The notes under the pieces: model-generated
The model's database searches: none
What the model saw: only the letters and a program-made list of their open reading frames with translations
Told to the model about the DNA's origin: nothing
Made by a program: the position numbers and the translations under genes
Source: a phage
Length of the DNA: 64,000 bases
Strand: one strand, 5' to 3'
Sequence record: PZ674596.1
Shown: positions 1,805 to 57,303 of the stretch, piece after piece
Position numbering within the stretch: the stretch's first letter is position 1
How the letters are laid out: every line of letters begins with the position of its first letter

Positions 1805-4800
1805 ATGAAGGCACTGATGGTTCGAACTGACTTCTCACTTGGGGAGTCGGCTCTAAAAGCAGAAAACGCGGTGAAGATTGCCAGAGAAGCTGGCTACACC
1901 GCTGTAATTTCAGCAGATAGCATGAATATTGCGAGCGTTATTCCACTACAACGTGCCGCTGGTGACGACATGGCGGTTATTTGTGGTGTGAAACTAAACA
2001 TTGTTGATGATCCCACATACGAGCACCGGGCTAAACTTGCTAAAGAATCTATGAGATGTATGGAATCATTAGAGCGAGGACGTAACTACTCGTTTACCGC
2101 TCTAATTAAAAATGAGAAAGGATATCGCGACATCTGCGAACTAATGACGGCGGCCAACACACGAGAACAGTTCTACTTTGTACCGCGTCTCTCGCTCGAA
2201 CAGTTGGTTTCTACATATGCCAAAGGCAACATCATCCTGCTTACTTCCGACATCGGTAGCGTGTTCCAACGCAACGATTTTGCAAAAATCATAAGCACAC
2301 TGATTACAGCGGGTGGAAAAGACAACTTCTATAGTGTGGTTTATCCGCACCCTACCCCATTCTACGACCAGATTAACGTCCGGGCGATGAAAGTCGCCAG
2401 CGCATTGAAAATAGAGCCAGTGGCGTTCTATCCCGCTTATTACGAATCGATCGACGATGCAGACATTAAAGACATTGCGCACATGGTTACGAACAACATC
2501 AAAATCGACCAGCCGCATCGTCTGCGTATCCCCCACCAGCGAGATAACGCCGTCAATGGTCGCCGCCATCTCCTTGAGGCGCTTAAAGCCTTCTCCGTTC
2601 GCATGGATGTGCCGGTAACAGCTGCAATGGCCTCAACAACGCAGGATACCATTATCGATGCCTGCACATGGCGCTGGCATGAATTGCCGCCAGCACTGCC
2701 AAAGATGGCAGACGACGAGCCTGCAACGCTGATGAAACTGGCTGTTGCAGGGCTGCGTAAACGTCTTACCACAAAAGAGTTTGGATACACACCACCTGCT
2801 TCTGAGAACAGGGTTTATGTTGAGCGGCTAAAGTACGAAATGGACACGCTGACTCGCCTGGGATTCTGTGGTTACTTCCTGATGGTACGCGATCTGATGA
2901 ATCACAGCCGTGAAACTGGCATTCCTGTCGGGCCTGGTCGTGGTTCCTCCGCTGGATCTCTGGTGGCATGGTGCATAGGCATAACCAACGTCGACCCAAT
3001 CCGTCACGGTCTTCTGTTTGAGCGTTTCATCAACCCTGAGCGTCTCGACTTGCCAGATGCGGATTTGGACTTCAGCCAGGCACGTCGCCATGAGGTGATC
3101 GAGTATCTGAATGAACGATACGGCGAAGATTACGTTGCAGGTATTCCTAACTTCACATATCTGGGCGCAGCCTCTGCACTACGTGACACCGCTCGTATTT
3201 ATGGTGTGGAGTCCGCAGATATGGCGGTATCAAAAGAGCTGAGGAACGTCGAGGATGATAGCCTTCCATTGGAAGAGCTGCGCGAACAACTGGCAAGTCT
3301 CGACAAATACGCGACAAAATACCCTGATGCATTCAATGCAGCCTGCAAGTTACAAAGCCTTATGCGTGGCTTTGGTAGACATGCGGCAGGGATGATTGTA
3401 GCAGGTGTTCCTCTGACAGAACGTACACCGGTTGAACGACGTGGTGACGCGCGTTGTATCGCATTTGACAAGCGTTACTGCGAGGCTATGGGCCTAATTA
3501 AGCTGGACGTGCTTGGCCTGGCAACTCTCGATTTGCTCGATAGTGCAAAACGCTACATAAAAGAGAACACAGGTGAAGATATCAATCTTGATGCCATTTC
3601 TCTTGAAGATCGCAAGGTGCTGGATGGTTTTGCTGCTGGGTACACTCAAGGTGTTTTCCAGCTTGAATCAGGCCCAATGCGCAAGCTGCTTAAAGATTTA
3701 GGTGGTGGAATTGAGCCAATGAGCTTTAAAACGGTCGTTGCTACGACTGCGCTCTTCCGGCCGGGGCCAATTCAGTCAGGCATGTTGGATGATTATGTTT
3801 CTGTCGCCAAAGGCTTTATGACGCCGGAATCATTACACCCCGTTCTTGATGAACTTACCGCAGAAACAAATGGCGTGATTCTTTATCAGGAACAGACGAT
3901 GAACGCGACTCGATTGCTTGCTGGCTTCACAATGGCTGAAGCTGACGGCGTTCGTAAAGCGATCGGCAAAAAAGACATGGAGAAAATGAAGAGCATGGGT
4001 GAGAAGTTCATCGTTCAGGCTCAAGCTGGCTGGATAGACGTTGAGCTGGAAGATGGCACTACACAGCGCATTCACCGTGCGGAACATTTTAAATGCGAAG
4101 ACGGAACACTGAAAACTGTCGAAGAGGCACTTGAGTACGGCGCAAAACTACCTATAAACGCAGTACGCGTTACAGCGTCACATCCAGGGCTATCAGAGAT
4201 GAAAGCGAAGGAGATCTGGACCGCATTCGAAAAGAATGGTGCCTACCAGTTCAACAAATCACACTCTGTTGCTTACTCCTTAATCAGTTATCAATCTATG
4301 TGGTTGAAAACTCATTATCCCGCAGAGTTTTTCGCTGCTGCTCTCACTATTCTTGGCGAAGATAAACACCAGGGGCTGGTTAAAGATGCGCTGACCTATG
4401 GTATTCGCGTATTGCCACCAGACGTTAACGTGTCATCTAACCGAATCGAGATCCGCACGCTTGAAGATGGCAGCCAGGTGCTGTATGCGCCCTTCTCTGC
4501 TGTGAAAGGGTGTTCTGAGAATGGCTGCCAAGCCATCATGAGAGCGCGAGAAAAAGTTGGCGGCAAATTCGAGTCACTGGCGCAATTCGAAGAAGCTGTC
4601 GAGAAACGTGCCTGTAATAGTCGAGTGCGCGAATCACTGCAAAAAGTAGGTGCGTTTGCATCCATCGAGCCAGGTAGTCTGCCAGCAACTGATCCAGAGC
4701 GTCTCCGCGACCAGGCTGAATTGATGGGAAACCTTGTCATAGACGCAGTTAAAGCCTCACGTCCGTTTGAGATGAACCCCAAACGTTCGGCTGAAATTAA

Positions 4801-5323
4801 CGCACTCATGACACGGATGGCGGCTGAAATGGGCTTAGGTGATGAACTAATCCGCCCCAGCATTGGTATTAAGCCGAAAATCATGATCATTCTGGACAAT
4901 GCGAACGGCAATGATGCTCGAACCGGTTACTTCATGGAGAACGGATACGACGACTTTAAGGCCAAGCTATTGACGGCTGGAGATTTACGCATGGGCGATC
5001 TCTATGTCACAGGCGTTTGCAAGAAGGTTAAAGACAAAGAAAAAGACTACACCAAAGACGAGATCGGCCAGTTCACCGACTTTATACGTGAAGAGATCAA
5101 TCTGGTGCGTCCGACCTATGTGCTGACGTGTGGCAGCCGGGCAACGGCATTGTTTAACAACAAAAACAAGCCATCCGATTTGGTCGGCAGGAAGGAGTAT
5201 CTTCCAGACCTTGACGTTACTGTCTTTTACGGGTTTAACCCCAACATTCTTTACTTCAGACCTGAAGAGGGAGAACGACTAGAAGCGATATTAGCCGACG
5301 TAGCAGAAACTATTAAGACGTGA
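1805..5323 (+). CDS. dnaE: DNA polymerase III alpha-subunit-like replicative polymerase (DnaE family) with divergent C-terminal ~170 aa
   Basis: 1172 aa; conserved DnaE core GYFLMVRDL...GPGRGSSAGSLVAWCIGIT..DPI..GLLFERFINPER; RBS AAAGGTAAAAACAC before ATG. Confidence 0.9.
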   Translation: MKALMVRTDFSLGESALKAENAVKIAREAGYTAVISADSMNIASVIPLQRAAGDDMAVICGVKLNIVDDPTYEHRAKLAKESMRCMESLERGRNYSFTALIKNEKGYRDICELMTAANTREQFYFVPRLSLEQLVSTYAKGNIILLTSDIGSVFQRNDFAKIISTLITAGGKDNFYSVVYPHPTPFYDQINVRAMKVASALKIEPVAFYPAYYESIDDADIKDIAHMVTNNIKIDQPHRLRIPHQRDNAVNGRRHLLEALKAFSVRMDVPVTAAMASTTQDTIIDACTWRWHELPPALPKMADDEPATLMKLAVAGLRKRLTTKEFGYTPPASENRVYVERLKYEMDTLTRLGFCGYFLMVRDLMNHSRETGIPVGPGRGSSAGSLVAWCIGITNVDPIRHGLLFERFINPERLDLPDADLDFSQARRHEVIEYLNERYGEDYVAGIPNFTYLGAASALRDTARIYGVESADMAVSKELRNVEDDSLPLEELREQLASLDKYATKYPDAFNAACKLQSLMRGFGRHAAGMIVAGVPLTERTPVERRGDARCIAFDKRYCEAMGLIKLDVLGLATLDLLDSAKRYIKENTGEDINLDAISLEDRKVLDGFAAGYTQGVFQLESGPMRKLLKDLGGGIEPMSFKTVVATTALFRPGPIQSGMLDDYVSVAKGFMTPESLHPVLDELTAETNGVILYQEQTMNATRLLAGFTMAEADGVRKAIGKKDMEKMKSMGEKFIVQAQAGWIDVELEDGTTQRIHRAEHFKCEDGTLKTVEEALEYGAKLPINAVRVTASHPGLSEMKAKEIWTAFEKNGAYQFNKSHSVAYSLISYQSMWLKTHYPAEFFAAALTILGEDKHQGLVKDALTYGIRVLPPDVNVSSNRIEIRTLEDGSQVLYAPFSAVKGCSENGCQAIMRAREKVGGKFESLAQFEEAVEKRACNSRVRESLQKVGAFASIEPGSLPATDPERLRDQAELMGNLVIDAVKASRPFEMNPKRSAEINALMTRMAAEMGLGDELIRPSIGIKPKIMIILDNANGNDARTGYFMENGYDDFKAKLLTAGDLRMGDLYVTGVCKKVKDKEKDYTKDEIGQFTDFIREEINLVRPTYVLTCGSRATALFNNKNKPSDLVGRKEYLPDLDVTVFYGFNPNILYFRPEEGERLEAILADVAETIKT

Positions 5324-25410: not shown

Positions 25411-25824
25411 ATGGCAAGAGGTATGTATGTCTTATGCGAAATTGAAGGTGTGCTGGCAAATACCAGCCATCGTAAATCTGTATCTGACTCGGATGCAGGC
25501 CAATTCATTGCCGGTGATGAACTCATTTTCCCCACCAGCCGTATGTTGCGTGGTTTTGCTCGCTCAGGGGCTGAAGTGGTGCTTATCAGTAGCCGCTCTG
25601 AAACTCTTGAAGCGCCCACTAAACGATGGCTGAAAGATTTTGGTGTTGATTACGACTGGCTTCACCTCGTACCGAATAGCACCAGTTATGAGAAGCATAT
25701 TAAGCGCACATTAGCGGAGCATAAAGGCGATCTGCTTATCGCTGCGCTGGTGCACGATCCTCGACTCCGTGCCGCTTTAGCTGACTCTCATCATAGACCG
25801 GTCATCTATGAGGTGAGCAAATGA
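25411..25824 (+). CDS. hypothetical protein
   Basis: 137 aa from ATG overlapping thyA stop; upstream part of table ORF overlaps thyA. Confidence 0.4.
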   Translation: MARGMYVLCEIEGVLANTSHRKSVSDSDAGQFIAGDELIFPTSRMLRGFARSGAEVVLISSRSETLEAPTKRWLKDFGVDYDWLHLVPNSTSYEKHIKRTLAEHKGDLLIAALVHDPRLRAALADSHHRPVIYEVSK

Positions 25825-26297
25825 AGATGATAGCTGCTGTTGGCCGTAACTATGAGATCGGCATAGCGAACGAACTGCCCTGGCGTTGTTCTACCGATCT
25901 GAAGCTATTTAAGAGACTCACCAAAAACGCCACTGTCGTTATGGGGCGTAAAACGATGGAAAGTCTCAAACGCCCTCTTCCAGAGCGTCATAACCTCGTT
26001 TTGACGCGCTCTCATGGCTTTGTACCAAATGGATTCTACCCTGCTGGTGTGGATGATGTGTTGCGATTACCAGAGCCTGTGTGGGTGATTGGCGGGGAAC
26101 AAATTTACTCGCTATTCATGCCGCATGTTGAAGAGATTTGGCTCTCCCACATCGGCGTTGATGTGCCAAACGCCGATGCATTCTTCCCGGCAAGCATGAT
26201 GCGTAATTTAGGCTTTGTGCCTGTTGAAACAGCTTATACCCAACGAGCCAGCGAGGAAGAGCCTGGCTTTTCGCAGATCGTATACAGAAGGTCGTAA
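25821..26297 (+). CDS. folA: dihydrofolate reductase
   Basis: 158 aa; DHFR-like N-terminus MIAAVGRNYEIG..LPW and VVMGRKT; adjacent to thyA as in T4 td/frd. Confidence 0.85.
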   Translation: MKMIAAVGRNYEIGIANELPWRCSTDLKLFKRLTKNATVVMGRKTMESLKRPLPERHNLVLTRSHGFVPNGFYPAGVDDVLRLPEPVWVIGGEQIYSLFMPHVEEIWLSHIGVDVPNADAFFPASMMRNLGFVPVETAYTQRASEEEPGFSQIVYRRS

Positions 26298-34470: not shown

Positions 34471-36156
34471 ATGAATACAGCCCTTTCCATCATCGACGAT
34501 GCCAGCTCAAACACGGCTATCGACTATCGTCAGGAAATGAATGTCATCCACGAAATCGTGGCCGAGTGCGAGAAAGAGATCGCCTTCATGTATCAGGTAC
34601 ACGACTTCGTTTATGGCGACGAACGCCACAACATGATTAATCGCCTGCTGAGACTAAACCATCGACCAGATGAAGATCGCTCGCGTTTAAATCGAGGTTG
34701 GTTGGATAAAGTCGATCTGGAATGGGTGAAACAGAATATTTGGGCCGAGTACTGGAGGAAGGTCACGGACATGACTAACGTTTTGCTGATCATGCCAGCT
34801 TCCCGTCGAGATGAGTGGCGCGAGCAGTTTATAGAGGGCAAACAGGAAGTCATCAAAACTGACAGAACCGGCTACCAGATGAAGGTTAAAGAGTTCGTTG
34901 GTGTACCGGAGTTCAAAGCAGAAACGGTCATACCCACGATGCTTAATTTGCTGAATGACAGGCACAAATATCTCTCTGAGCGCGTGTATGGCTTGTTTAA
35001 GGCGCTGAGTCCTGCGCACAAGACAAATAAGACAAACGGTTTCAGCGAGCGGCTGATAATCGCTGACTGCATTTCTGATTTCTGGCGGGACAGCGTTAGC
35101 GTGAACTATCGCAAAGAGGACTACATCGACGATCTGCGTGTCTTGCTTCATTTCTTCGCGCACAAAGAATTTATTACCATCAACCGCACTGCTGAGGTGC
35201 TATCAGCTGCGTATCGGGCAAACGACTGCCAGACCGGTGACTGGATGAACGTCGATGGAAATCTGATGCGCGTGAAGATGTTCAAGAACGGCAACGTTCA
35301 CTTTGAAATACATCCTGACGTGGCCTGGAAGTTGAATGAGGTGCTGGCTTACAGTATGCCTGCTGCAATCCCCGCGCCATGTCGCACCGCGCCAAAAACA
35401 CGGGCACCAAAGCAGTTCGGGTTAATCCAGAAGACGATCTCCGTGCCGGTTCGCACTGCGCTTCGTGACGGGCGATTGAGCAAAGACAAAGGCGTATGGT
35501 ACTTCTCTGATTCAGCTCTCCAGAAGTCGCAGGTGGAAGAGCTTGAGCGCACACTGAGCTTCATTGGCGGCGTGCAGGAGAAAAAACACTGGCAGTTCCC
35601 GTATGACATCGTCCATACGCTAAATACGATTGTGGCTACCGGATTAATACCGGATACAAAATCACACCAGTTCTACCCTACCCCACGCTTGATTGCTGAG
35701 TACGTTGCCAGAGCCACTGAATTGAAGCCTGGTGAGAAGCTGCTGGAGCCTCAAGCCGGACGTGGGGATCTTCTGGCCTATATTAACGCCGATCTGGAAG
35801 ATGTTACCTGCATAGAAATCGCACCTCTCTTCGCTGATATCCTGCGTGGAAAAGGGTATACGAACACGATTTGCTGCGACTTCATAAAGTGGTCTGAGGA
35901 CAACGCAGGTTATCAGTTCGACAAAATCGTTATGAACCCGCCGTACTCGCTTGGTCGTCATAGAGAGCACACTCTGGCTGCGCTTGGGCATCTGAAAGTC
36001 GGCGGGCGTCTTGTAGCAGTATTGCCGGGCACTGCGCCAATACTGGACTGGATGACGATGGATAATTACGTTTATGCCAGAGGGAAGTCGTTTACCAACG
36101 AGTTTGAAGACACAGGGATCACAGTCAGCGTATACGTTTTCAAACGCGTTAAATGA
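34471..36156 (+). CDS. large protein with C-terminal N6-adenine DNA methyltransferase domain
   Basis: 561 aa; SAM-binding-like LEPQAGRGDL then catalytic VMNPPYS near C-terminus; ~400 aa N-terminal region of unknown function. Confidence 0.6.
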   Translation: MNTALSIIDDASSNTAIDYRQEMNVIHEIVAECEKEIAFMYQVHDFVYGDERHNMINRLLRLNHRPDEDRSRLNRGWLDKVDLEWVKQNIWAEYWRKVTDMTNVLLIMPASRRDEWREQFIEGKQEVIKTDRTGYQMKVKEFVGVPEFKAETVIPTMLNLLNDRHKYLSERVYGLFKALSPAHKTNKTNGFSERLIIADCISDFWRDSVSVNYRKEDYIDDLRVLLHFFAHKEFITINRTAEVLSAAYRANDCQTGDWMNVDGNLMRVKMFKNGNVHFEIHPDVAWKLNEVLAYSMPAAIPAPCRTAPKTRAPKQFGLIQKTISVPVRTALRDGRLSKDKGVWYFSDSALQKSQVEELERTLSFIGGVQEKKHWQFPYDIVHTLNTIVATGLIPDTKSHQFYPTPRLIAEYVARATELKPGEKLLEPQAGRGDLLAYINADLEDVTCIEIAPLFADILRGKGYTNTICCDFIKWSEDNAGYQFDKIVMNPPYSLGRHREHTLAALGHLKVGGRLVAVLPGTAPILDWMTMDNYVYARGKSFTNEFEDTGITVSVYVFKRVK

Positions 36157-36217: not shown

Positions 36218-36922
36218 ATGAACAACCTCCAGTTAGAGCATTTTAACGTCACAGGCCATTCTGATTTTCCTTTCAAGTTTACATTGAAAGGTTATGCAGA
36301 GGATGCGGTAGGCCAGATCATTATTGATAAAGGCATCGTTAAGTTTGAGGGGAATTTTGATGAATCCGCGAAAACATTCATAGACTTCGTTGCCAAACGT
36401 TGGAGCGAGCAATGGAAAGACCTGGAAAAGCGCGCTAATGAGTTTGATCGGTTCATGGATGCAATGGATACAGCAAAAGAGGCTCTTGCTGCCGGGACTC
36501 CGTTAGATCTGGAGTCACTTTTCAACGGCGAAGTGGCCTCTGCGATGTTCGCCACCATGTTCGCGGGTGAGTTCGTCCGCAGCGGTGCCAAAAACTACCT
36601 TGAGCTGGATTACAACGTCCCTGCAATTGGCGACTTCGTCGTTACCATCCAACGCAAAGAAGGTAAGACGCCAGGTGAACGCGTCGCAGAGCTTGAGGCC
36701 GTTGTGGATCAGCGTAACGGAGAGTGTGACCGTTTGATCAACGAGCTTCATGCACTTCGGGAAGAAAGAATATGTGCGGGTAGCAATACACGTAATGCTG
36801 CGGATATCTACTTCCAGTTAGTCGAGGAATGCCAGATTCCACCAGGTGGCTCTCTTGTCGATTACGTCAGACATTTAATGGCGGAAGTTAACTCCAGCCA
36901 TAAAGATGGTGAGGTGCGCTGA
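36218..36922 (+). CDS. hypothetical protein (shares C-terminal module with 39406..40098)
   Basis: 234 aa; C-terminal NTRNAADIYFQLVEECQIPPGGSLVDYV also present in a second protein. Confidence 0.5.
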   Translation: MNNLQLEHFNVTGHSDFPFKFTLKGYAEDAVGQIIIDKGIVKFEGNFDESAKTFIDFVAKRWSEQWKDLEKRANEFDRFMDAMDTAKEALAAGTPLDLESLFNGEVASAMFATMFAGEFVRSGAKNYLELDYNVPAIGDFVVTIQRKEGKTPGERVAELEAVVDQRNGECDRLINELHALREERICAGSNTRNAADIYFQLVEECQIPPGGSLVDYVRHLMAEVNSSHKDGEVR

Positions 36923-39405: not shown

Positions 39406-40098
39406 ATGACCAACATTAACTATCAGGCACTGCGTGAAAAGGCAGAAAAAGCAACGTGGGGAGACTGGGACTCATATAAACCACACCGTGGCGCACGTGG
39501 TTATAAGGTCCGACTAAGTGGTCAGGCCATTGCGCAACACGTTCTGAAAAACAACGCTGAATTTATTGCTGCCTTTAATCCAAAGGTTGCTTTGGCATTA
39601 CTGGATGAACTGGAAAGAAACCAGCAATACATCAAACGCCGTGACCAGGAGAACGAGGAAATTGCGCTAACGGTAGGGAGGCTTCGCGTTGAGCTGGAAG
39701 GCAAAGACAGCAAAATAGCCAATCTTACCGCCGAACGCGATGCTCTTCGTGAAGGTGAGATGGGCGACGCTAGGCATAGCAACACACGGGCCGCAGCTGA
39801 TATCTACTTCCAACTGGTCGAGGAGTGCGAAATTCCTGCTGGCGGTTCTCTGGTCGAGTACGTTGACGATATGCGCGAGAAGTTGGAAGCCGCAGAGAAG
39901 CGCATTGCAGAGTTAGAAAGTGGTTCTCAGGCACAAAAGTTAGTTGAAGCAATCATTGTTGCGATAGAAAACGAACAGGAAAGGCTTTTTGATGAAGATT
40001 ACCTAATGGATTCGAAAGAATGCATTGACGTAATTCGTGAAGAAGTAAAGCGATGGAATGATTCCCGTGCCGCTGGCATTCGCATCAAAGGAGAGTGA
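39406..40098 (+). CDS. hypothetical protein (paralogous C-terminal module)
   Basis: 230 aa; NTRAAADIYFQLVEECEIPAGGSLVEYV matches C-terminus of 36218..36922. Confidence 0.5.
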   Translation: MTNINYQALREKAEKATWGDWDSYKPHRGARGYKVRLSGQAIAQHVLKNNAEFIAAFNPKVALALLDELERNQQYIKRRDQENEEIALTVGRLRVELEGKDSKIANLTAERDALREGEMGDARHSNTRAAADIYFQLVEECEIPAGGSLVEYVDDMREKLEAAEKRIAELESGSQAQKLVEAIIVAIENEQERLFDEDYLMDSKECIDVIREEVKRWNDSRAAGIRIKGE

Positions 40099-40373: not shown

Positions 40374-41213
40374 ATGACCACTATAACCGATAAGAAACAG
40401 TATCCAGGCGAGCAATATCTTAATGAGCTAATCACCAACATAGAGTTTGCTGCAAGGGCACCAGTTGAAGTCGTGAGAGCGATGGCAGCAGAGCTACAGA
40501 AGCGGCGCGAAGCTGATAGTGCAGAACCTGCAAGTAATCATGAAGAGTTGCCGCTTGATTATCTCCAAGGTCAAAAAGATGGTCTTGAATGGGCTGCGCA
40601 GCTTGCAGAAGCAAATCACCCACAAACTGGCGACTGGCTTTACGATGACCCGCTGGAGCTGGCTAAAGCTATCAGAAAAGGTCCTGACATGCCCGAATTC
40701 GATGGACCAACTCCGGTAACTCCGGATGGTTGGATAAGCTGTAGTGAGCGAATGCCTGTAATTGGCGAGCTAAATTGGAGAACTAGTTTTCCTTTACTGG
40801 TTATGTGTGAGATCGGCGTTATACCTGCTTATTACGGCTTTGTGAGCGTTAATGGTGATAGGCATTATGGCTTTATGGAGAGTCTTAAATACGGAGACGA
40901 TAACGGCAACCATCCTCAAACTAATGAATATGGTCTGATTAGCAATGTCACACACTGGATGCCACTACCAGAACGCCGCAGGAGTCGAACAGTGAATAAA
41001 GCAGAGTTATTTCAGAAAATATCGGCTCTCGCGACTGAATGTCACGCTATAGCATCTGAGCTTGATGTTGGCGGTGAACGAACCGAGATGTTCGAAATAT
41101 ACAGTGTGCTGCGCAATCTCTGTCGGCGTGGCTACGCTACTCAGGTAGGGCGAATGACTAACCCACTACTTTCATTCTGTGATGAGGATGACTCGGATGA
41201 GGATGACGAATGA
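40374..41213 (+). CDS. hypothetical protein with acidic C-terminal tail
   Basis: 279 aa; ends DEDDSDEDDE; central W..C..RMP / THWMPLP segment. Confidence 0.45.
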   Translation: MTTITDKKQYPGEQYLNELITNIEFAARAPVEVVRAMAAELQKRREADSAEPASNHEELPLDYLQGQKDGLEWAAQLAEANHPQTGDWLYDDPLELAKAIRKGPDMPEFDGPTPVTPDGWISCSERMPVIGELNWRTSFPLLVMCEIGVIPAYYGFVSVNGDRHYGFMESLKYGDDNGNHPQTNEYGLISNVTHWMPLPERRRSRTVNKAELFQKISALATECHAIASELDVGGERTEMFEIYSVLRNLCRRGYATQVGRMTNPLLSFCDEDDSDEDDE

Positions 41214-41593
41214 TGCATAAATCAGTAGCCGGTGAGCTTCAGAAGGAAGTCGATAATACCACTGATCTATTGGACGATATTTTAAGCATTCTCGCGCTGC
41301 TTGAGGCTGGTGATTGGTCAGAACATTGCACTAAAACAGAGCTAGGCGGTCGGCTTGAAAGAGAGATTACACGACTGATTAGCGATGCCCAAAATGATTT
41401 GTCACCTGAGCATCTCCCCTGCGATGTAGTTCTTGTGCCAGGGATGAGGATACACGAAGGCGTCAGAACGAAAACATTATTAACCGCATTACAGAGAAGA
41501 GCCGAACTAAGCTCGCGGATAAAGTTGATGCCATCCAAAATATTTGATGTCGTCAAATTTACGCCATCGCAACATACTGAGAGAGATAAATGA
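41210..41593 (+). CDS. hypothetical protein
   Basis: 127 aa; start overlaps upstream stop. Confidence 0.4.
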   Translation: MMHKSVAGELQKEVDNTTDLLDDILSILALLEAGDWSEHCTKTELGGRLEREITRLISDAQNDLSPEHLPCDVVLVPGMRIHEGVRTKTLLTALQRRAELSSRIKLMPSKIFDVVKFTPSQHTERDK

Positions 41594-42405
41594 GCACGGT
41601 AGCGAAAGATCTCACAGAAGATATTCTCAATGAAATTATTGCTGGTGCAAATACCTCGCTTGAGCAACTTCTTGCGTTAGCACTGAGAGCCGAACGTCGA
41701 GACAGAAATCGTTTTTATGAGCGATTACCAGGGAAGCGACCAGATAGATCGGATGAAGAAGGTTGCGATATAGACTACATGGAGCCTTCAGAGATTTATC
41801 AACTTGGTAAAGATGACGGCTGGAACGCTTATCACGATGCTGTGATGAAGTTGGATGAAAAAGTTAAACCTCTTTCTCGACCGGTAGATCACGGTTTCCG
41901 CGATAACTGCGAATGCTCTAGTTGCCAGACCACGGCCCGTATTTGTTCCGAATTGACAGATAAGTCCAGCCTAATCTACGAAGTTAATGTAGGCGGTAAT
42001 ACATGGGTCGAATGCACAAGAGCTGCATACGTAAGAGCAAAAGACAAGGGTGAATTAACCAGAGTTGTTACCCATCACCCAAATAATGAGCTTAAAGATC
42101 ACCAGATTAGAGAACTGGTGAACGAGTTGCGGGATATTGCGGTTACGTATCACGGAACGCAGCAATTGCGGGAGAAAATTGCCAGAGCAGTGAACAACTC
42201 GCTCAAAGGTGGACAATCCCAACCGAAACGTATACGAATTACACATATAGGTGAAAACGGAACAGAAATCCCCCAATTTTCTGTTGGGGACATCTTTGAT
42301 GTACATGGAGAAGAGTTTGGCGAGCCTCACATCACTATGCCTAGTGGCCATGTTTATTGGCTAAGAGCTATGGAGAAATATGGTGATAAATGGGAAGTGT
42401 TATGA
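41590..42405 (+). CDS. hypothetical protein with Cys-rich motif
   Basis: 271 aa; CECSSCQ..C motif; overlaps next gene start. Confidence 0.45.
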   Translation: MSTVAKDLTEDILNEIIAGANTSLEQLLALALRAERRDRNRFYERLPGKRPDRSDEEGCDIDYMEPSEIYQLGKDDGWNAYHDAVMKLDEKVKPLSRPVDHGFRDNCECSSCQTTARICSELTDKSSLIYEVNVGGNTWVECTRAAYVRAKDKGELTRVVTHHPNNELKDHQIRELVNELRDIAVTYHGTQQLREKIARAVNNSLKGGQSQPKRIRITHIGENGTEIPQFSVGDIFDVHGEEFGEPHITMPSGHVYWLRAMEKYGDKWEVL

Positions 42406-42418
42406 GGGATGCGAAGTT

Positions 42419-42943
42419 ATGACTAAATTTGGAAAGCTGGAAGCTCATTTGCTAACTCGTAACTACCGCCATGATGTGCATCCATATAGACAGTGGATCG
42501 ATGAAAGCGAAGGAGTTGTTACATTCCCTCTATACAGGTTTGATGGGATGTTGGCCGGGTATCAGACATACAGACCAGGCGCTCCTAAGCAGCATAGCAA
42601 TCCGAAGATGGCCCGGTATTTCACACGAGCGCACGGCAGACAGCTACTATGGGGAACCTATCTTCCTTTAAAAGATGGACCGATATGGATAACTGAGTCG
42701 ATTTTTAAAAGTGCAGCAGTGCACAACGCGGGCGGAAATTCGTGGGCGCTGTTAGGTTCGACTTTCTCAGCAGGATTACGTCGTCAACTGGCAATGCTGC
42801 CGTATGACTTTCGCGTAATAGGTGACAATGATGCGGCTGGTGAATCACTTGTGAAGTCTTTCGGAAAAGGTTTTGTGGCCCCGGATCTTGACGAGCTACA
42901 ACCAAATGAAGTGTCTCATTTGATTTTTAGCCATAGCCAATAA
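42419..42943 (+). CDS. Toprim-like domain protein (tentative)
   Basis: 174 aa from ATG 42419; acidic motifs ITESIF and GDNDAAGE spaced like Toprim E and DxD. Confidence 0.4.
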   Translation: MTKFGKLEAHLLTRNYRHDVHPYRQWIDESEGVVTFPLYRFDGMLAGYQTYRPGAPKQHSNPKMARYFTRAHGRQLLWGTYLPLKDGPIWITESIFKSAAVHNAGGNSWALLGSTFSAGLRRQLAMLPYDFRVIGDNDAAGESLVKSFGKGFVAPDLDELQPNEVSHLIFSHSQ

Positions 42944-42959
42944 GCATCCCTTCTCCATT

Positions 42960-43022
42960 AAGGCCACTAGTTGTGGCCTTAAACAATTTGTTTTCTACCT
43001 TTTCTTGTTCGAGAAAATAACG
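42960..43022 (+). promoter_or_regulatory. conserved terminator-promoter cassette
   Basis: AAGGCCACTAGTTGTGGCCTT followed by AAACAATTTGTTTTCTACCTTTTCTTGTTCGAGAAAATAAC. Confidence 0.55.
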
Positions 43023-43079
43023 TTCATTTGTCTGGTGCTATGTACCGATCAGTTGCACTGAGTGAGCTTCTTTCATGTA

Positions 43080-43099
43080 TACTGTATAAATGAACAGTA
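43080..43099 (+). promoter_or_regulatory. LexA (SOS) box upstream of humD-like gene
   Basis: TACTGTATAAATGAACAGTA fits CTGT-N8-ACAG; 17 nt upstream of ATG 43116. Confidence 0.7.
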
Positions 43100-43115: not shown

Positions 43116-43505
43116 ATGGGCTTCCCTTCTCCTGCGGCGGATTATGCTGAGAGCCGTATTTCTCTTGATCAGCAGATAATTAGACATCCTTCAGCGACCT
43201 ACTTCATGAGAGCGGCTGACAGCCATCATCGTGAGGGAATATTGCAGGGCGCATTGCTGGTGGTCGATTCCTCACTTACCCCGGTTGATGGTTCTCTGCT
43301 TGTATGCGCTCTGGATGGGGAATATCGCGTAAAAAGATACCGGAAGTATCCACGTCAGCATCTGGAGGATTTAAGAACTGGTAAGAAGGAAGCATTGCCA
43401 AAGGATGACGATGGATGCACGGGCAGCAATGCCGTGTTTGGTGTGATCACTCACATTATCAACGACGCAAGAAGTGGCGAGTTTGATGATTGTCCCGTGA
43501 TGTAG
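43116..43505 (+). CDS. humD: UmuD'-like protein lacking the N-terminal arm (HumD-like)
   Basis: 129 aa beginning MGFPSPAADY, i.e. at the UmuD Cys24-Gly25 processing site; Ser and Lys of the catalytic dyad alignable (ADSH; VKR); P1 HumD has the same form. Confidence 0.75.
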   Translation: MGFPSPAADYAESRISLDQQIIRHPSATYFMRAADSHHREGILQGALLVVDSSLTPVDGSLLVCALDGEYRVKRYRKYPRQHLEDLRTGKKEALPKDDDGCTGSNAVFGVITHIINDARSGEFDDCPVM

Positions 43506-43542: not shown

Positions 43543-44643
43543 TCACACTGCGCGGAATGCGATTTCGCCAGGTATTACTTCACCTTGCCAATACATTTGG
43601 GCAGCAACGCGATCTGCGAGGTCACGATAAATAGCTGTAAATTCGCTATCTGGACGACTAATAACGGTTGGTGTTCCGTTATCCAGATCTTCACGAAGAG
43701 AGATATGAAGTGGCATTTGGCCTAACAACTGCGTGTTGTATTTCTCGGCCAGTTTCTGTGCGCCACCGGTGCCAAAAATTGGCTCGTGATGACCGCAGTT
43801 ACTGCAAATATGCACACTCATGTTTTCAACGATACCCAGTACCGGCACTTCGACTTTTTCGAACATCACAATGCCTTTCTTCGCATCGATCAGCGCGATG
43901 TCTTGCGGCGTAGTTACCACAACCGCACCAGTTACAGGAATGTTCTGCGCCAGCGTCAACTGAATATCACCAGTGCCCGGCGGCATATCGAGAACAAGAT
44001 AGTCCAGATCAGGCCACAATGTTTCCTGCAACATCTGCATTAACGCCTTGCTCGCCATCGGTCCACGCCACACCATTGCATTGTCGTCGGTGACCAGATA
44101 ACCAATAGAGTTGGTTGCCAGGCCATGAGACATGATAGGTGCCATGTGAGTACCGTCAGGTGAGGTTGGACGTTGGTTTTCCGCGCCCAGCATGGTTGGA
44201 ATTGATGGACCATAGATATCGGCATCCAAAATACCAACTTTCGCACCTTCAGCAGCCAACGCCAGTGCCAGGTTTACCGCCGTGGAGGATTTACCCACGC
44301 CGCCCTTGCCTGAGCTGACGGCGATAATGTTCTTAACGCCATTAATGCCTGGTTGGTTTTTGACGCGCTTAAGCGTGGCAATGTTGTACGACAGCTTCCA
44401 GTCAATAGCCTTTGCGCCAGTGATACGGAGCAGATCACCACTACATTGCTCTTTCAGGTCTTCAAAAGGCTTATTCCACACGAAAGGCATGATTAGTTCG
44501 ACATGCAGTGTGTCATCCATCAACGCAACATGGTGTAACGCTTTAAGCGTAGTCAGGTTGTGTTTCAGGGTTGGGTGCTGAAAATTAGCCAGCGTACCGG
44601 CTACCATTGCTCTCAGGGCATCCGGCGATTTGGACTCGCTCAT
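43543..44643 (-). CDS. mrp: Fe-S cluster carrier ATPase Mrp/ApbC (host-type)
   Basis: 366 aa; deviant Walker A SGKGGVGKSS; matches my recollection of enterobacterial Mrp. Confidence 0.9.
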   Translation of the reverse strand: MSESKSPDALRAMVAGTLANFQHPTLKHNLTTLKALHHVALMDDTLHVELIMPFVWNKPFEDLKEQCSGDLLRITGAKAIDWKLSYNIATLKRVKNQPGINGVKNIIAVSSGKGGVGKSSTAVNLALALAAEGAKVGILDADIYGPSIPTMLGAENQRPTSPDGTHMAPIMSHGLATNSIGYLVTDDNAMVWRGPMASKALMQMLQETLWPDLDYLVLDMPPGTGDIQLTLAQNIPVTGAVVVTTPQDIALIDAKKGIVMFEKVEVPVLGIVENMSVHICSNCGHHEPIFGTGGAQKLAEKYNTQLLGQMPLHISLREDLDNGTPTVISRPDSEFTAIYRDLADRVAAQMYWQGEVIPGEIAFRAV

Positions 44644-44800
44644 CCCGTCTCCTTTATTTTAATTTGCGCAATTGTCGCCTTGTAGTGTACTCCAGCTACG
44701 ACATTTAATCATTTATGAGAAATGCTGTTATCACATGGCAGACATAAGGCCATTTTGTTACTATCAAGCCCCTTTTCACTACAAAGAAGTAATGCCTACT

Positions 44801-46834
44801 ATGACCCAAGTCGCGAAGAAAATTCTGGTGACGTGCGCGCTGCCGTACGCTAACGGCTCAATCCACCTCGGCCATATGCTGGAGCACATCCAGGCTGATG
44901 TCTGGGTTCGTTACCAGCGAATGCGCGGCCACGAGGTTAATTTCATCTGTGCCGACGATGCCCACGGTACGCCGATCATGTTGAAAGCACAGCAGCTTGG
45001 TATCACACCGGAGCAGATGATTGGCGAAATGAGTCAGGAACATCAGACTGATTTCGCAGGCTTTAACATCAGCTATGACAACTATCACTCGACGCACAGC
45101 GAAGAGAACCGTCAGTTGTCCGAGCTTATCTATACTCGCCTGAAAGAGAACGGTTTTATTAAAAACCGCACCATCTCTCAGCTGTACGACCCGGAAAAAG
45201 GCATGTTCCTGCCGGACCGTTTTGTAAAAGGCACATGCCCGAAATGTAAAGCGCCGGATCAATACGGCGATAACTGTGAAGTCTGCGGCGCTACTTACAG
45301 CCCGACTGAACTGATCGAGCCGAAATCGGTAGTTTCTGGTGCTACGCCGGTAATGCGTGATTCCGAACACTTCTTCTTTGATCTGCCTTCTTTCAGCGAA
45401 ATGTTGCAGGCATGGACCCGCAGCGGTGCGTTGCAGGAGCAGGTGGCAAACAAAATGCAGGAGTGGTTTGAATCTGGCCTGCAACAGTGGGATATCTCCC
45501 GCGATGCGCCGTACTTCGGTTTTGAAATTCCGAACGCACCGGGCAAATATTTCTACGTCTGGCTGGACGCGCCGATTGGCTACATGGGTTCCTTCAAGAA
45601 TCTGTGCGACAAACGCGGCGACACTACCAGCTTCGACGAATACTGGAAGAAAGACTCCACCGCCGAGCTGTACCACTTCATCGGTAAAGATATCGTTTAC
45701 TTCCACAGCCTGTTCTGGCCTGCCATGCTGGAAGGCAGCAACTTCCGCAAGCCGACCAACCTGTTTGTTCACGGCTATGTGACGGTGAACGGCGCGAAGA
45801 TGTCCAAGTCTCGCGGCACCTTTATTAAAGCCAGCACCTGGCTGAATCATTTTGACGCCGACAGCCTGCGTTACTACTACACTGCGAAACTCTCTTCGCG
45901 CATTGATGATATCGATCTCAATCTGGAAGATTTCGTTCAGCGTGTGAATGCCGATATCGTTAACAAAGTGGTTAACCTGGCCTCCCGTAATGCAGGCTTT
46001 ATCAACAAGCGTTTTGACGGCGTGCTGGCAAGCGAACTGGCTGACCCGCAACTGTACAAAACCTTTACTGATGCCGCTGAAGTGATTGGCGAAGCATGGG
46101 AAAGCCGCGAATTTGGCAAAGCTATCCGTGAAATCATGGCACTGGCTGACCTGGCTAACCGCTATGTTGATGAACAGGCTCCGTGGGTGGTGGCGAAGCA
46201 GGAAGGACGCGATGCCGATCTGCAGGCGATTTGCTCTATGGGCATTAACCTGTTCCGCGTGCTGATGACGTACCTGAAACCGGTACTGCCGAAACTGACT
46301 GAACGTGCAGAAGCATTCCTGAATACAGAACTGACCTGGGATGGTATCCAGCAACCGCTGCTGGGCCATAAAGTGAATCCGTTCAAGGCACTGTATAACC
46401 GTATCGATATGAAACAGGTGGAAGCACTGGTGGAAGCATCCAAAGAAGAAGTGAAAGCCACAGCTGCACCGGTAACTGGCCCACTGGCTGACGACCCGAT
46501 TCAGGAAACCATCACCTTTGACGACTTCGCCAAAGTTGACCTGCGTGTGGCGCTGATTGAAAACGCGGAGTTTGTCGAAGGTTCTGACAAACTGCTTCGC
46601 CTGACGCTGGATCTCGGTGGTGAAAAGCGTAATGTCTTCTCAGGCATCCGTTCCGCTTATCCAGATCCACAGGCACTGATTGGTCGTCACACCATTATGG
46701 TGGCTAACCTGGCACCACGTAAAATGCGCTTCGGTATCTCTGAAGGCATGGTGATGGCTGCTGGCCCCGGCGGGAAAGATATCTTCCTGTTAAGCCCGGA
46801 TGCTGGTGCTAAACCTGGCCACCAGGTTAAGTAA
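44801..46834 (+). CDS. metG: methionyl-tRNA synthetase (host-type)
   Basis: 677 aa from ATG 44801 (table ORF has spurious 43-aa extension); [16 protein letters not shown], Zn knuckle CPKCK..CEVCG; near-identical to enterobacterial MetG as I recall it. Confidence 0.95.
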
Positions 46835-54622: not shown

Positions 54623-55144
54623 TCAAAACGGTAAAATTCGTTCAACCCAATCGAAGAATACAAGTGTTTTTCTGCCGTCTTCTAACTTAAGAGTGACCTG
54701 GCAAGCATCAACGCCTCTTGATATCCCTTCTATTTCACGACCGTCTGCCATGTAGACCCTTATAGATTTGCCGTTTTGGTAAGCCTGACGACATATCTTA
54801 AAAAAGTCACGACGTGATGGCTGATTGTCAACATAGTCTGGATGTATTGTTAGCCTACCTTTGAACTCGCGAGCAATGCCATCGATTACACCTGATTCAA
54901 TTGTGCTAATGCGCTCAAGTGGGAGTCTTATACGATTTTCTTTATCATATGGAAGCGGGCATAAATCTAGCTTATTGCGGGAAGGCATTGTCCCCTGAAC
55001 GTACATGCAAAACACCTGACCGTCTTCAAGCGTGACTCTTACAGGAATGTTGTTTTTCCGCCAGAACATAAGTATGTTTTCAGCATGTTCGTAGTCTCGT
55101 GGCCAGACTTCTGCTGGAATGCCGTAGGTGATGTCTTTAACCAT
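54623..55144 (-). CDS. hypothetical protein with internal tandem repeat of ~80-aa domain (weak Sm/Hfq-like signature)
   Basis: 173 aa; halves share R..N.IPVRVTLEDGQV / GKSIRVYMADGREIEG pattern; ends 3 nt before the secreted-protein gene. Confidence 0.45.
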   Translation of the reverse strand: MVKDITYGIPAEVWPRDYEHAENILMFWRKNNIPVRVTLEDGQVFCMYVQGTMPSRNKLDLCPLPYDKENRIRLPLERISTIESGVIDGIAREFKGRLTIHPDYVDNQPSRRDFFKICRQAYQNGKSIRVYMADGREIEGISRGVDACQVTLKLEDGRKTLVFFDWVERILPF

Positions 55145-56169: not shown

Positions 56170-57303
56170 TTAATTGGCGTTTTCGTTCTTCTCTTTTTTG
56201 CTAATTTCATCACATGCAAGGTTCATTATGTCTATGTTTTCTTGTTTTTGAAGGTTGCCGACAATTTTTTGGCGCAATTCATAAAATCGCTCGCGTGGTA
56301 TAGCTTCCTTGTTGCCGCTGATGTGAAGTATTGCGTGACAGCTAGGGCAGACGGCAATCAGATCTGTTTTTGGGTTCACGCTTCGTGCACCTTCGCCTTG
56401 TGAAAGTGGGATGATGTGGTGAGCGTGTAGCAGCGTTTTCGTTTCTTTACCGTCAATTTCCTTGCCGTATATTTCCGACATCGTTCTGCAACATAGTTGA
56501 CACCTGTAGTCTGCGTTTGCCAGAACGTCATTCCTTAACCCGGATACGCGGCTACGATGTTGCGACTGGATTAATCTTGTTTCGCCCTCTATATATTCCT
56601 CAACTTCTTCTTTCTGGAGGTCGTAGCTGATTTCTTCTTGAGTTACGTTGTCTTCTGCTTTGGCTGAGACTGCATGAATCTCTTTCTTATTCAACGAGAA
56701 AGGTGATTTGAGAGCATCAGCACTGTTTTGCCCTCTTGAATGTTGTGATTTTAGAGCAAGATTGTAAATCTCTTTTAATTTGACATTTTTTTTGTTTGTT
56801 CTAAAGAACTTTCTGCTCTCTACTTGTGAGATAATCCCTGATTCTATATATTGAATTAACACACGAAGAAAATGTTCTATAGATTTTTTACTTTTGAATG
56901 AAAAGGAATAGCCGACTTTCTTTCTCAACTCGTTTTCGCTAAAGAACTCTTTCAGATTTTCGTCGTCAGTCAGGTTAATGGTTGCACCTGCCCAGGTTGA
57001 AGCTTCTACAATTTCAGGAATAACCTCTTGGTCGCCAAGCTGATTGTTTATTTCATCCAGCATTTTAAAGACTGTCAATATTGGATACGGATTCGTCACC
57101 AGACCGTTAGAGGATTTCGTTCTAGGCCCATTCTTTTTTATAATGATGGGGTGCTGTTGAGAAGTTTTCTTTAATTGTAAATAATAAAGGTTTATATTAT
57201 TATTCGTTGATATACCTGCCGGTTTTATCAAGGATAATTTTTCATCACATGCAATATCATCTATTATATTTCTTAGGTCACACGTTTTTATAAATTGACG
57301 CAT
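56170..57303 (-). CDS. HNH-nuclease-domain protein with unknown N-terminal domain
   Basis: 377 aa; C-terminal CQLCC...HAHHIIPLS...CPSCH HNH signature; low GC; RBS GGAGGA lies in a CCTCCGAA/TTCGGAGG hairpin. Confidence 0.6.
   Translation of the reverse strand: MRQFIKTCDLRNIIDDIACDEKLSLIKPAGISTNNNINLYYLQLKKTSQQHPIIIKKNGPRTKSSNGLVTNPYPILTVFKMLDEINNQLGDQEVIPEIVEASTWAGATINLTDDENLKEFFSENELRKKVGYSFSFKSKKSIEHFLRVLIQYIESGIISQVESRKFFRTNKKNVKLKEIYNLALKSQHSRGQNSADALKSPFSLNKKEIHAVSAKAEDNVTQEEISYDLQKEEVEEYIEGETRLIQSQHRSRVSGLRNDVLANADYRCQLCCRTMSEIYGKEIDGKETKTLLHAHHIIPLSQGEGARSVNPKTDLIAVCPSCHAILHISGNKEAIPRERFYELRQKIVGNLQKQENIDIMNLACDEISKKEKNENAN

Follow-up and report, generated by a model that had tools for sequence, protein, structure and literature searches.

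What does a small Toprim-like protein do in an Escherichia coli phage-plasmid? The stretch of DNA that we analyzed (64,000 nt of sequence record PZ674596.1, hereafter the window) is part of an SSU5/pHCM2-like E. coli phage-plasmid. The region considered here is 97–98% identical to ~110 kb E. coli plasmids such as pIso00225_02 (NZ_CP095139.1), and it also matches the 109-kb plasmid of O104:H4 2009EL-2050, 'Escherichia phage CMS-2020a', PhiR41_1, and Cyrano. A block of lambdoid 'ea-region' accessory genes that runs rightward ends in two open reading frames (ORFs): one encodes a 271-aa protein with a CECSSC..C motif, and the other, the last gene of the operon, starts 14 nt past the stop of the first and encodes a 174-aa protein with a Toprim-like Glu and a DxD motif (Table 1). 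A first-pass annotation had read both ORFs and their motifs correctly and suggested that the pair jointly supplies priming as a split primase. We find that the 174-aa protein is a primase catalytic core, and we propose that it is probably an anti-retron protein of the recently described Rad family of anti-defense proteins.

The 174-aa protein is a DnaG-type primase core related to T5 Rad

The program-made ORF for the 174-aa protein begins at 42380 and spans 187 aa. We place the start at the ATG at 42419 because it is the call of the NCBI Prokaryotic Genome Annotation Pipeline (PGAP), agrees with the N-termini of homologs, and is preceded by GAGGGA, a likely ribosome-binding site. RefSeq/PGAP labels the gene 'toprim domain-containing protein'. 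Single-sequence searches against Pfam, NCBIfam, and the PDB returned no match, and only PHROGs and profile or structure methods detected the homology. PHROG 849, 'DNA primase', matches the protein at 1.9e-53, the match covering only positions 142–333 of the 435-position profile. Homologs in a large protein database are all 160–177 aa long. Their alignment contains four conserved blocks: FPL..F.G.L.GYQ.YRPGA.K...NPK..RYFTR...WG, TE(S/G)IF(K/D), GDNDAAG, and DLDE. The family profile in turn matches the RNA-polymerase domains (RPDs) of the E. coli (E ~9e-4), S. aureus, and Aquifex DnaG proteins and a further DnaG structure (5vaz). With E. coli DnaG the alignment spans motifs II–V, and the acidic residues pair with EGYMD and DGDRAG. 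The N-terminal RPD subdomain is present as well: VTFPLYRFDGMLAGYQTYR and PKQHSNPKMARYFTR align to RVMFPIRDKRGRVIGFGGR and PKYLNSPET (motifs II/III).

The key residues of the 174-aa protein are R14, P37, K57, R66-Y67, E93, D136, D138, D156, D158, and E159. The basic motifs are retained and the acidic metal center (E93, D136, D138, D156/D158) is intact, with E93, D136xD138, and D156-L-D158-E159 on invariant or near-invariant columns of the family alignment. The Toprim-like Glu and DxD spacing noted in the first-pass annotation is therefore not a chance resemblance, given these conserved columns, the DnaG profile match, the PHROG 849 match, and the RefSeq label. The AlphaFold model is confident (predicted local distance difference test, pLDDT, 91.5; predicted TM-score, pTM, 0.87), and in a fold comparison 163 of the 174 modeled residues superpose on the Aquifex DnaG RPD. 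No zinc-binding domain, whether CHC2 or C4 ribbon, occurs in the 174-aa protein, which has zero cysteines, and neither a helicase-binding nor any other extra domain is present; the chain stops right after motif VI. The protein is thus a genuine homolog of the DnaG/T7 gp4 primase catalytic core, comprising the Toprim half together with the N-terminal RPD subdomain. Small Toprim nucleases such as RNase M5 consist of Toprim alone, without that subdomain, and the 174-aa protein does not conform to their architecture.

Which characterized protein does this core most resemble? A tblastn search of phage genomes with the 174-aa protein returned 490 records, the T5-like ones aligning at 40–43% identity over 94% of the query. 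The T5 counterpart is T5p074, a 172-aa 'DNA primase-like protein' encoded in the T5 tRNA region; BLASTP gave a full-length match (43% identity over 167 aa, E 5e-33). According to a paper on the T5-like phage BF23, the T5 TOPRIM ORF 'previously annotated as primase' has been shown to be Rad, which inhibits retron immunity. Rad is ORF75 of phage SP15, a small protein with a 'primase/helicase and TOPRIM/RNase domain', which neutralizes retrons Ec67, Ec78, Ec83, Ec48, and Se72, lowers multicopy single-stranded DNA (msDNA) as well as msr-msd RNA (reported only in the preprint), and is weakened by the substitutions R13E, P33T, I88T, D135H, and E156H (Azam et al. 2023 bioRxiv 10.1101/2023.03.15.532788). 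These five sites coincide exactly with T5p074 numbering and fall on conserved columns, and all five residues are identical in the window protein (R14, P37, I91, D138, and E159). The peer-reviewed version assigns ORF75 to evasion of retron-Eco2 and retron-Eco7, which correspond to Ec67 and Ec78 (Azam et al., Nat Commun 2024, PMC11555353), and a later Nature Communications paper again names 'the anti-defense protein Rad'; later retron structure papers add nothing on its mechanism. The second-best match to the 174-aa model in the BFVD viral structure library is the Rad homolog of Proteus phage Privateer, which gave strong protection against retron Ec78 (Azam et al. 2023 bioRxiv). T5 and SP15 mutants deleted for the Rad region grow normally on retron-free hosts.

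The family is broad. An exhaustive profile search at E<1e-3 gave 1661 cluster representatives, 182 of them below 1e-30, and nearly all are stand-alone proteins of 160–190 aa. The partial PHROG 849 match had raised the possibility of an N-terminal truncation, which we rejected in view of this uniform length. Rare fusions (P0250, P0183, P0230, P0165, P0202, P0263, P0236, and P0277) join the Rad-like domain to CCA-adding/poly(A)-polymerase heads, Arr-like ADP-ribosyltransferases, NadM-like cytidylyltransferase, Mom, HAD, and ParB_N. In IMG/VR loci the gene lies beside tRNA arrays, the NAD+ salvage genes NadV and NadM-Nudix, Macro domains, and a gp32-like single-stranded-DNA-binding protein (SSB) or a SNF2 helicase; L069, L082, L085, L088, and L091 are examples with NadV and NadM-Nudix, Macro, or tRNA-array neighbors or with such fusions. 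This mixture resembles the content of anti-defense or auxiliary islands and leaves room for other roles in nucleic-acid metabolism. Two variants of the gene deserve mention. Four loci (L036, L048, L053, and L057; e.g., L053:5653-6519), two of them on contigs of 107–110 kb, encode a 38%-identical homolog within a 288-aa ORF whose cysteine-free extension of ~120 aa could be either a genuine N-terminal domain or the product of an upstream false start. In two plasmids (H124/H125; NZ_CP062854.1 and NZ_JAUDQK020000003.1) the match is limited to nt 142–525 of the Rad-like gene, in a stretch annotated as part of an 'ead/Ea22-like family protein', which may be a recombinant fusion ORF.

Upstream protein, cassette, and replicative primase

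The 271-aa protein offers no sign of the zinc-binding domain that a split primase calls for. Its cysteines are arranged as C107-x-C109-x2-C112-x7-C120, a spacing unlike that of a CHC2 or C4 primase ribbon, and the segment carrying them is confined to near-identical relatives. The sole widely conserved part of the protein, residues ~168–201 (KDHQIRELVNELRDIAVTYHGTQQLREKIARAV), is common to hundreds of DUF551/ea-type prophage proteins. Searches of Pfam, NCBIfam, and the PDB for zinc-binding-domain homology gave only noise, the PHROG matches were confined to families without assigned function, and AlphaFold, supplied with 15 homologs, produced no usable model (pLDDT 39.6). An identity as zinc-binding domain was further tried by hhalign comparison with the N-terminal zinc-ribbon end of the element's 371-aa primase (see below) and rejected, since this revealed no similarity (0.2% probability). 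Homology searches thus bear out the DnaG/T7 gp4-type Toprim/RPD assignment of the 174-aa protein and give no zinc-binding domain in the 271-aa protein, which is a mosaic accessory protein with no functional tie to the Rad-like gene.

The Rad-like gene is an accessory cassette of SSU5-like and P1-like phage-plasmids. In the window, the variable segment takes in the 3' end of the 271-aa ORF (68 codons), the Rad-like gene, and a terminator-like hairpin. Two sibling SSU5-like plasmids, pRM9131-1 and pEP91B-1, have in place of this segment ~780 bp that contain no long ORF (L093:2872-3650 and L094). The left junction of the segment immediately follows KDHQIRELVNELRDIAVxYHGTQQLREKIARAVNNS, a module of wide distribution that resembles a linker for recombination among mosaic ea-region genes. 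In sibling plasmids the Cys protein occurs as a 208-aa version, with no Toprim gene present. Conversely, Rad-like genes 97–99% identical to the window copy follow three different upstream genes. In SSU5-like elements the gene ahead encodes the 271/284-aa Cys protein, in P1-like elements a 101-aa protein, and in others a 90-aa lipoprotein-like protein. Across ~70 related loci, we found no recurring neighbor with a zinc ribbon (CxxC..CxxC) except in lineage-specific cases, namely the 101-aa CxxH..CxxC protein of P1-like elements and unrelated HNH or small proteins of T5-like phages. The 101-aa protein ends in CFDH-x18-CPVC and has no Pfam match; its stop overlaps the start of a 97–98% identical Rad-like gene (L022:5699-6004; also L018, L020, L024–L030, L032, and L033), and one of these loci (L020) has a 121-aa paralog.

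Comparison of the SSU5-type and P1-type copies of the Rad-like gene shows 24 synonymous and 4 nonsynonymous codon differences, so that purifying selection acts on the gene. In classical P1 and P7, approximately its last 210 nt (cf. window 42731–42943) are all that remains, upstream of upf93.6/lxr-humD. In P7 this 3' remnant (L004 ~3001–3100; in P1, L005 ~3001) adjoins IS903, which suggests that the gene was lost in the reference phages. Downstream of the gene in the window, the hairpin closes the operon, and humD follows with a LexA box of its own in the same layout as in P1 and P7, where the box is annotated. Co-transcription of the Rad-like gene with humD under LexA was accordingly rejected, because both the hairpin and the LexA box intervene.

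How, then, is this element's replication primed? The first-pass annotation noted that neither DnaG nor DnaB is visible beside DnaE, which is true within the window but reflects where the window ends: to judge from its relatives, the remaining ~45 kb of the replicon encode a primase as well as a DnaB-like helicase. The implied absence of a primase does not hold for plasmids 97–98% identical to the replicon. In NZ_CP095139.1, the part corresponding to DNA outside the window encodes a 371-aa protein that matches PHROG 47, 'DNA primase', at 6e-65 and, weakly, DNAG_N, Toprim_2, and TIGR01391. This protein has a CPVC-x16-C-x4-H ribbon, an EGAFD motif (EGxxD), and other primase motifs, and its gene adjoins those for a 446-aa DnaB-like helicase and an ATP-dependent ligase. 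The primase–DnaB module is present in 253 complete E. coli genomes, where the PGAP label is often 'DNA primase'. Of 5426 E. coli genomes, 63 have the Rad-like gene, roughly one for every four that have the module, and the gene is always on a plasmid, either SSU5-sized (≥96% identity) or P1-sized (~94%). A normal primase–helicase pair exists and nothing unusual is needed for replication of the element. A literature search for SSU5 together with primase returned nothing.

Table 1. Features of the window at and around the Rad-like gene, and other window genes named in the text.
Feature	Position	Strand	Remark
DnaE	1805-5323		window gene
DHFR (dihydrofolate reductase)	25821-26297	+	
Ead/Ea22	39406-40098		member of lambdoid 'ea-region' block
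DUF551	40374-41213		member of lambdoid 'ea-region' block
271-aa mosaic prophage 'ea-region' protein	41590-42405	+	CECSSC-x7-C motif at nt 41908-41949
Variable cassette	42201-43077		
GAGGGA	42404-42409	+	likely ribosome-binding site, 9 nt upstream of the ATG; read from sequence
Rad-like gene	42419-42943	+	174 aa; stand-alone DnaG/gp4-type primase RPD protein
Toprim-like E93	42695-42697		
DxD (D136/D138)	42824-42832		
Terminator-like hairpin	42958-42982	+	closes rightward accessory operon behind Rad-like gene
LexA box CTGTATAAATGAACAG	43082-43097	+	directly before humD
humD	43116-43505		separate SOS-regulated unit common to P1/P7
apbC	43543-44643	-	host-type Fe-S carrier
metG	44672-46834	+	full-length methionyl-tRNA synthetase
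FljA-like 'repressor of phase-1 flagellin'	54623-55144	-	PF03614, E 3e-82
HNH-domain protein	56170-57303	-	

The window also encodes a gp32-like SSB, a 5'-3' exonuclease, a RecA-like protein, a Rep3 initiator, Mre11/Rad50-like proteins, ribonucleotide reductase (RNR), and thymidylate synthase. The genes apbC and metG lie directly past humD, and the FljA-like gene and the nearby HNH-domain gene are both inside a low-GC stretch (~0.38) of the phage-plasmid. Finally, we note that the counterpart of the DHFR gene in a relative is named 'trimethoprim-resistant dihydrofolate reductase DfrA51' by PGAP, and that the same relative has ISEcp1-blaCTX-M-15 between the counterparts of window genes 34471–36156 and 36218–36922.

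Candidate functions of the Rad-like protein

We propose that the 174-aa protein is probably a Rad-type anti-retron protein. The gene would be expressed as the last gene of a rightward early/accessory operon. Its product would bind retron non-coding RNA or msDNA in a primase-type nucleic-acid groove, and the Toprim metal center would then cleave or otherwise inactivate the bound nucleic acid. Host retrons would thereby be unable to abort infection or induction, so that the phage-plasmid would be protected on entry and on induction, while replication priming would come from the 371-aa zinc-ribbon primase and the DnaB-like helicase that the element itself encodes. Several points weigh against this proposal. 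Every primase polymerase motif is kept, which would be superfluous for a simple RNase. The peer-reviewed version calls the Rad mechanism not yet determined (Nat Commun 2024, PMC11555353), and the idea of non-coding RNA degradation comes from the in vivo RNA and msDNA levels in the preprint. Two of the Rad homologs tested there protected only moderately (bioRxiv 10.1101/2023.03.15.532788), and 43% identity to Rad is no guarantee of the same target range, the anti-retron role of the present protein being predicted from sequence. Likewise, the replicon's primase and helicase are presumed from its 97–98% identical relatives, and the heterogeneous neighborhoods of the family, which in some phages include a gp32-like SSB, a SNF2 helicase, or DNA ligase, are compatible with a role linked to replication or repair.

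The retention of the polymerase motifs admits a variant of this proposal, in which Rad-type proteins are catalytically competent primases without a zinc finger that disable retrons through a primase-like reaction on retron nucleic acids instead of acting as plain RNases. Such a reaction is conceivable because the published mechanism is open and all DnaG polymerase motifs are kept; it could be RNA synthesis on, or nucleotidyl transfer to, single-stranded msDNA or msr-msd RNA, and it could extend to a broader action on structured RNA 3' ends, as hinted by fusions and adjacency to CCA-adding enzymes. We consider this variant distinctly unlikely. The same motifs and acidic residues could instead indicate an auxiliary primase that lacks a zinc-binding domain, an active RNA polymerase that works alone or with another partner in special priming (for example, restart priming, priming of single-stranded DNA after entry, or coupling to the SOS/HumD module) and whose anti-retron effect is secondary. 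Some Toprim primases of mobile elements, such as TraC and Sog, are known to prime DNA on entry, and the SSB, SNF2 helicase, or ligase genes beside some family members would suit such a task. However, retron evasion is the sole experimental phenotype of the family, every genome examined has a separate primase (the SSU5-like elements, as described above, and Kagunavirus RP180, which has the small protein and also encodes gp42, a 'replicative helicase-primase'), T5 can do without the gene and most sibling plasmids lack it, and humD, behind the hairpin and under its own LexA box, is not co-transcribed. An auxiliary primase is therefore unlikely. A third possibility, which we judge quite improbable, is an enzyme directed at RNA ends or tRNA that processes, repairs, or cleaves tRNA or structured RNAs, with retron non-coding RNA as one substrate among several. 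In T5-like phages and no fewer than three further phage lineages, tRNA arrays lie 42–300 bp from the gene, CCA-adding/poly(A)-polymerase fusions exist in two architectures (P0250 and P0183), the gene adjoins tRNA nucleotidyltransferase in Vibrio and Shewanella phages, and archaeal DnaG is described as an RNA-binding exosome subunit. On the other hand, no tRNA gene lies within 6 kb at about half of the loci examined, including the window and all phage-plasmid loci, the fusions may be read-through artifacts of compact accessory islands, and tRNA arrays co-localize with anti-defense genes anyway. For the present element, tRNA linkage was rejected, as the 64-kb window contains no tRNA gene.

The zinc-binding domain of T7 gp4 can act in trans, and the two genes of the window are adjacent, only 14 nt apart. 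The split primase of the first-pass annotation would use the 271-aa Cys protein as a zinc-binding template-recognition module acting in trans on the 174-aa core, the pair priming for the DnaE-type polymerase. The core is indeed a complete DnaG-type RPD lacking a zinc-binding domain, and stand-alone primase-type zinc ribbons accompany DnaG-like Toprim proteins in jumbo phages (Iyer et al. 2021, PMC7824862). Yet the 271-aa protein has neither zinc-binding-domain homology nor a CHC2/C4 spacing, and its Cys segment does not extend past near-identical relatives. The pairing is not conserved in either direction, the replicon family has a canonical zinc-ribbon primase with DnaB in about four times as many genomes as the Toprim gene, and T5 mutants without the homolog are viable. 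The distribution data have already largely refuted a split primase, which we regard as highly improbable. The least credible reading is that of a decaying primase remnant without function. It could draw on the partial PHROG 849 match and on the 3' fragments in P1 and P7, but it is refuted by the conservation data: a uniform length of 160–190 aa across at least 182 clusters, a confident fold prediction, conserved catalytic residues, and the 24:4 ratio of synonymous to nonsynonymous differences.

The Rad-type assignment adds a further member, residing in phage-plasmids, to an already known anti-defense family. It implies that the labels 'DNA primase' and 'toprim domain protein' on phage proteins of ~170 aa conceal a counter-defense gene, and it corrects the annotation here. 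SSU5-like and P1-like E. coli phage-plasmids, which are clinically relevant carriers of, for example, CTX-M-15, would exchange this anti-retron cassette. Because Rad comprises a complete primase RNA-polymerase domain and more than a Toprim module, the fold gives a structural starting point for the main question left: how does a complete primase core without a zinc finger disable retrons?

Comparison with known systems

The closest parallel is Rad/ORF75 of T5 and SP15, like the 174-aa protein a stand-alone protein of ~170 aa with a DnaG-like fold, encoded by an accessory gene in a variable region. The window protein and T5 Rad also share the subgroup signature TESIFK, in place of the canonical TEGxFD of more distant members. 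The settings differ: T5 and SP15 Rad belong to virulent T5-like phages, whereas the window copy resides in a temperate phage-plasmid (SSU5-like, and elsewhere P1-like), and the T5 gene is in a tRNA array, whereas the window copy is not.

With the T7 gp4 primase fragment (PDB 1nui) and the bacterial DnaG RPDs (PDB 1dd9, 2au3, and 5guj), the 174-aa protein shares motifs II–VI and the acidic metal ligands. Unlike DnaG and T7 gp4, it has no zinc-binding domain, no cysteine, and no helicase or helicase-binding domain, its core is far more compact than that of DnaG (174 vs. ~320 aa), and it is not the replicative primase of its element. Similarly, the split DnaG-like primases of jumbo phages (Iyer et al. 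2021, PMC7824862) resemble it in having a Toprim/RPD core without a fused zinc ribbon, but the window protein differs from them in having no associated primase-type zinc-ribbon gene, a variable upstream neighbor, and a complete primase elsewhere on the replicon. Finally, the small Toprim nucleases RNase M5 (PDB 6tg6) and the B. stearothermophilus small Toprim protein (PDB 2i5r) have the same Glu and DxD metal center and are also small; they act, or are thought to act, on RNA, and they do so without the primase N-terminal subdomain that the Rad-like protein has.

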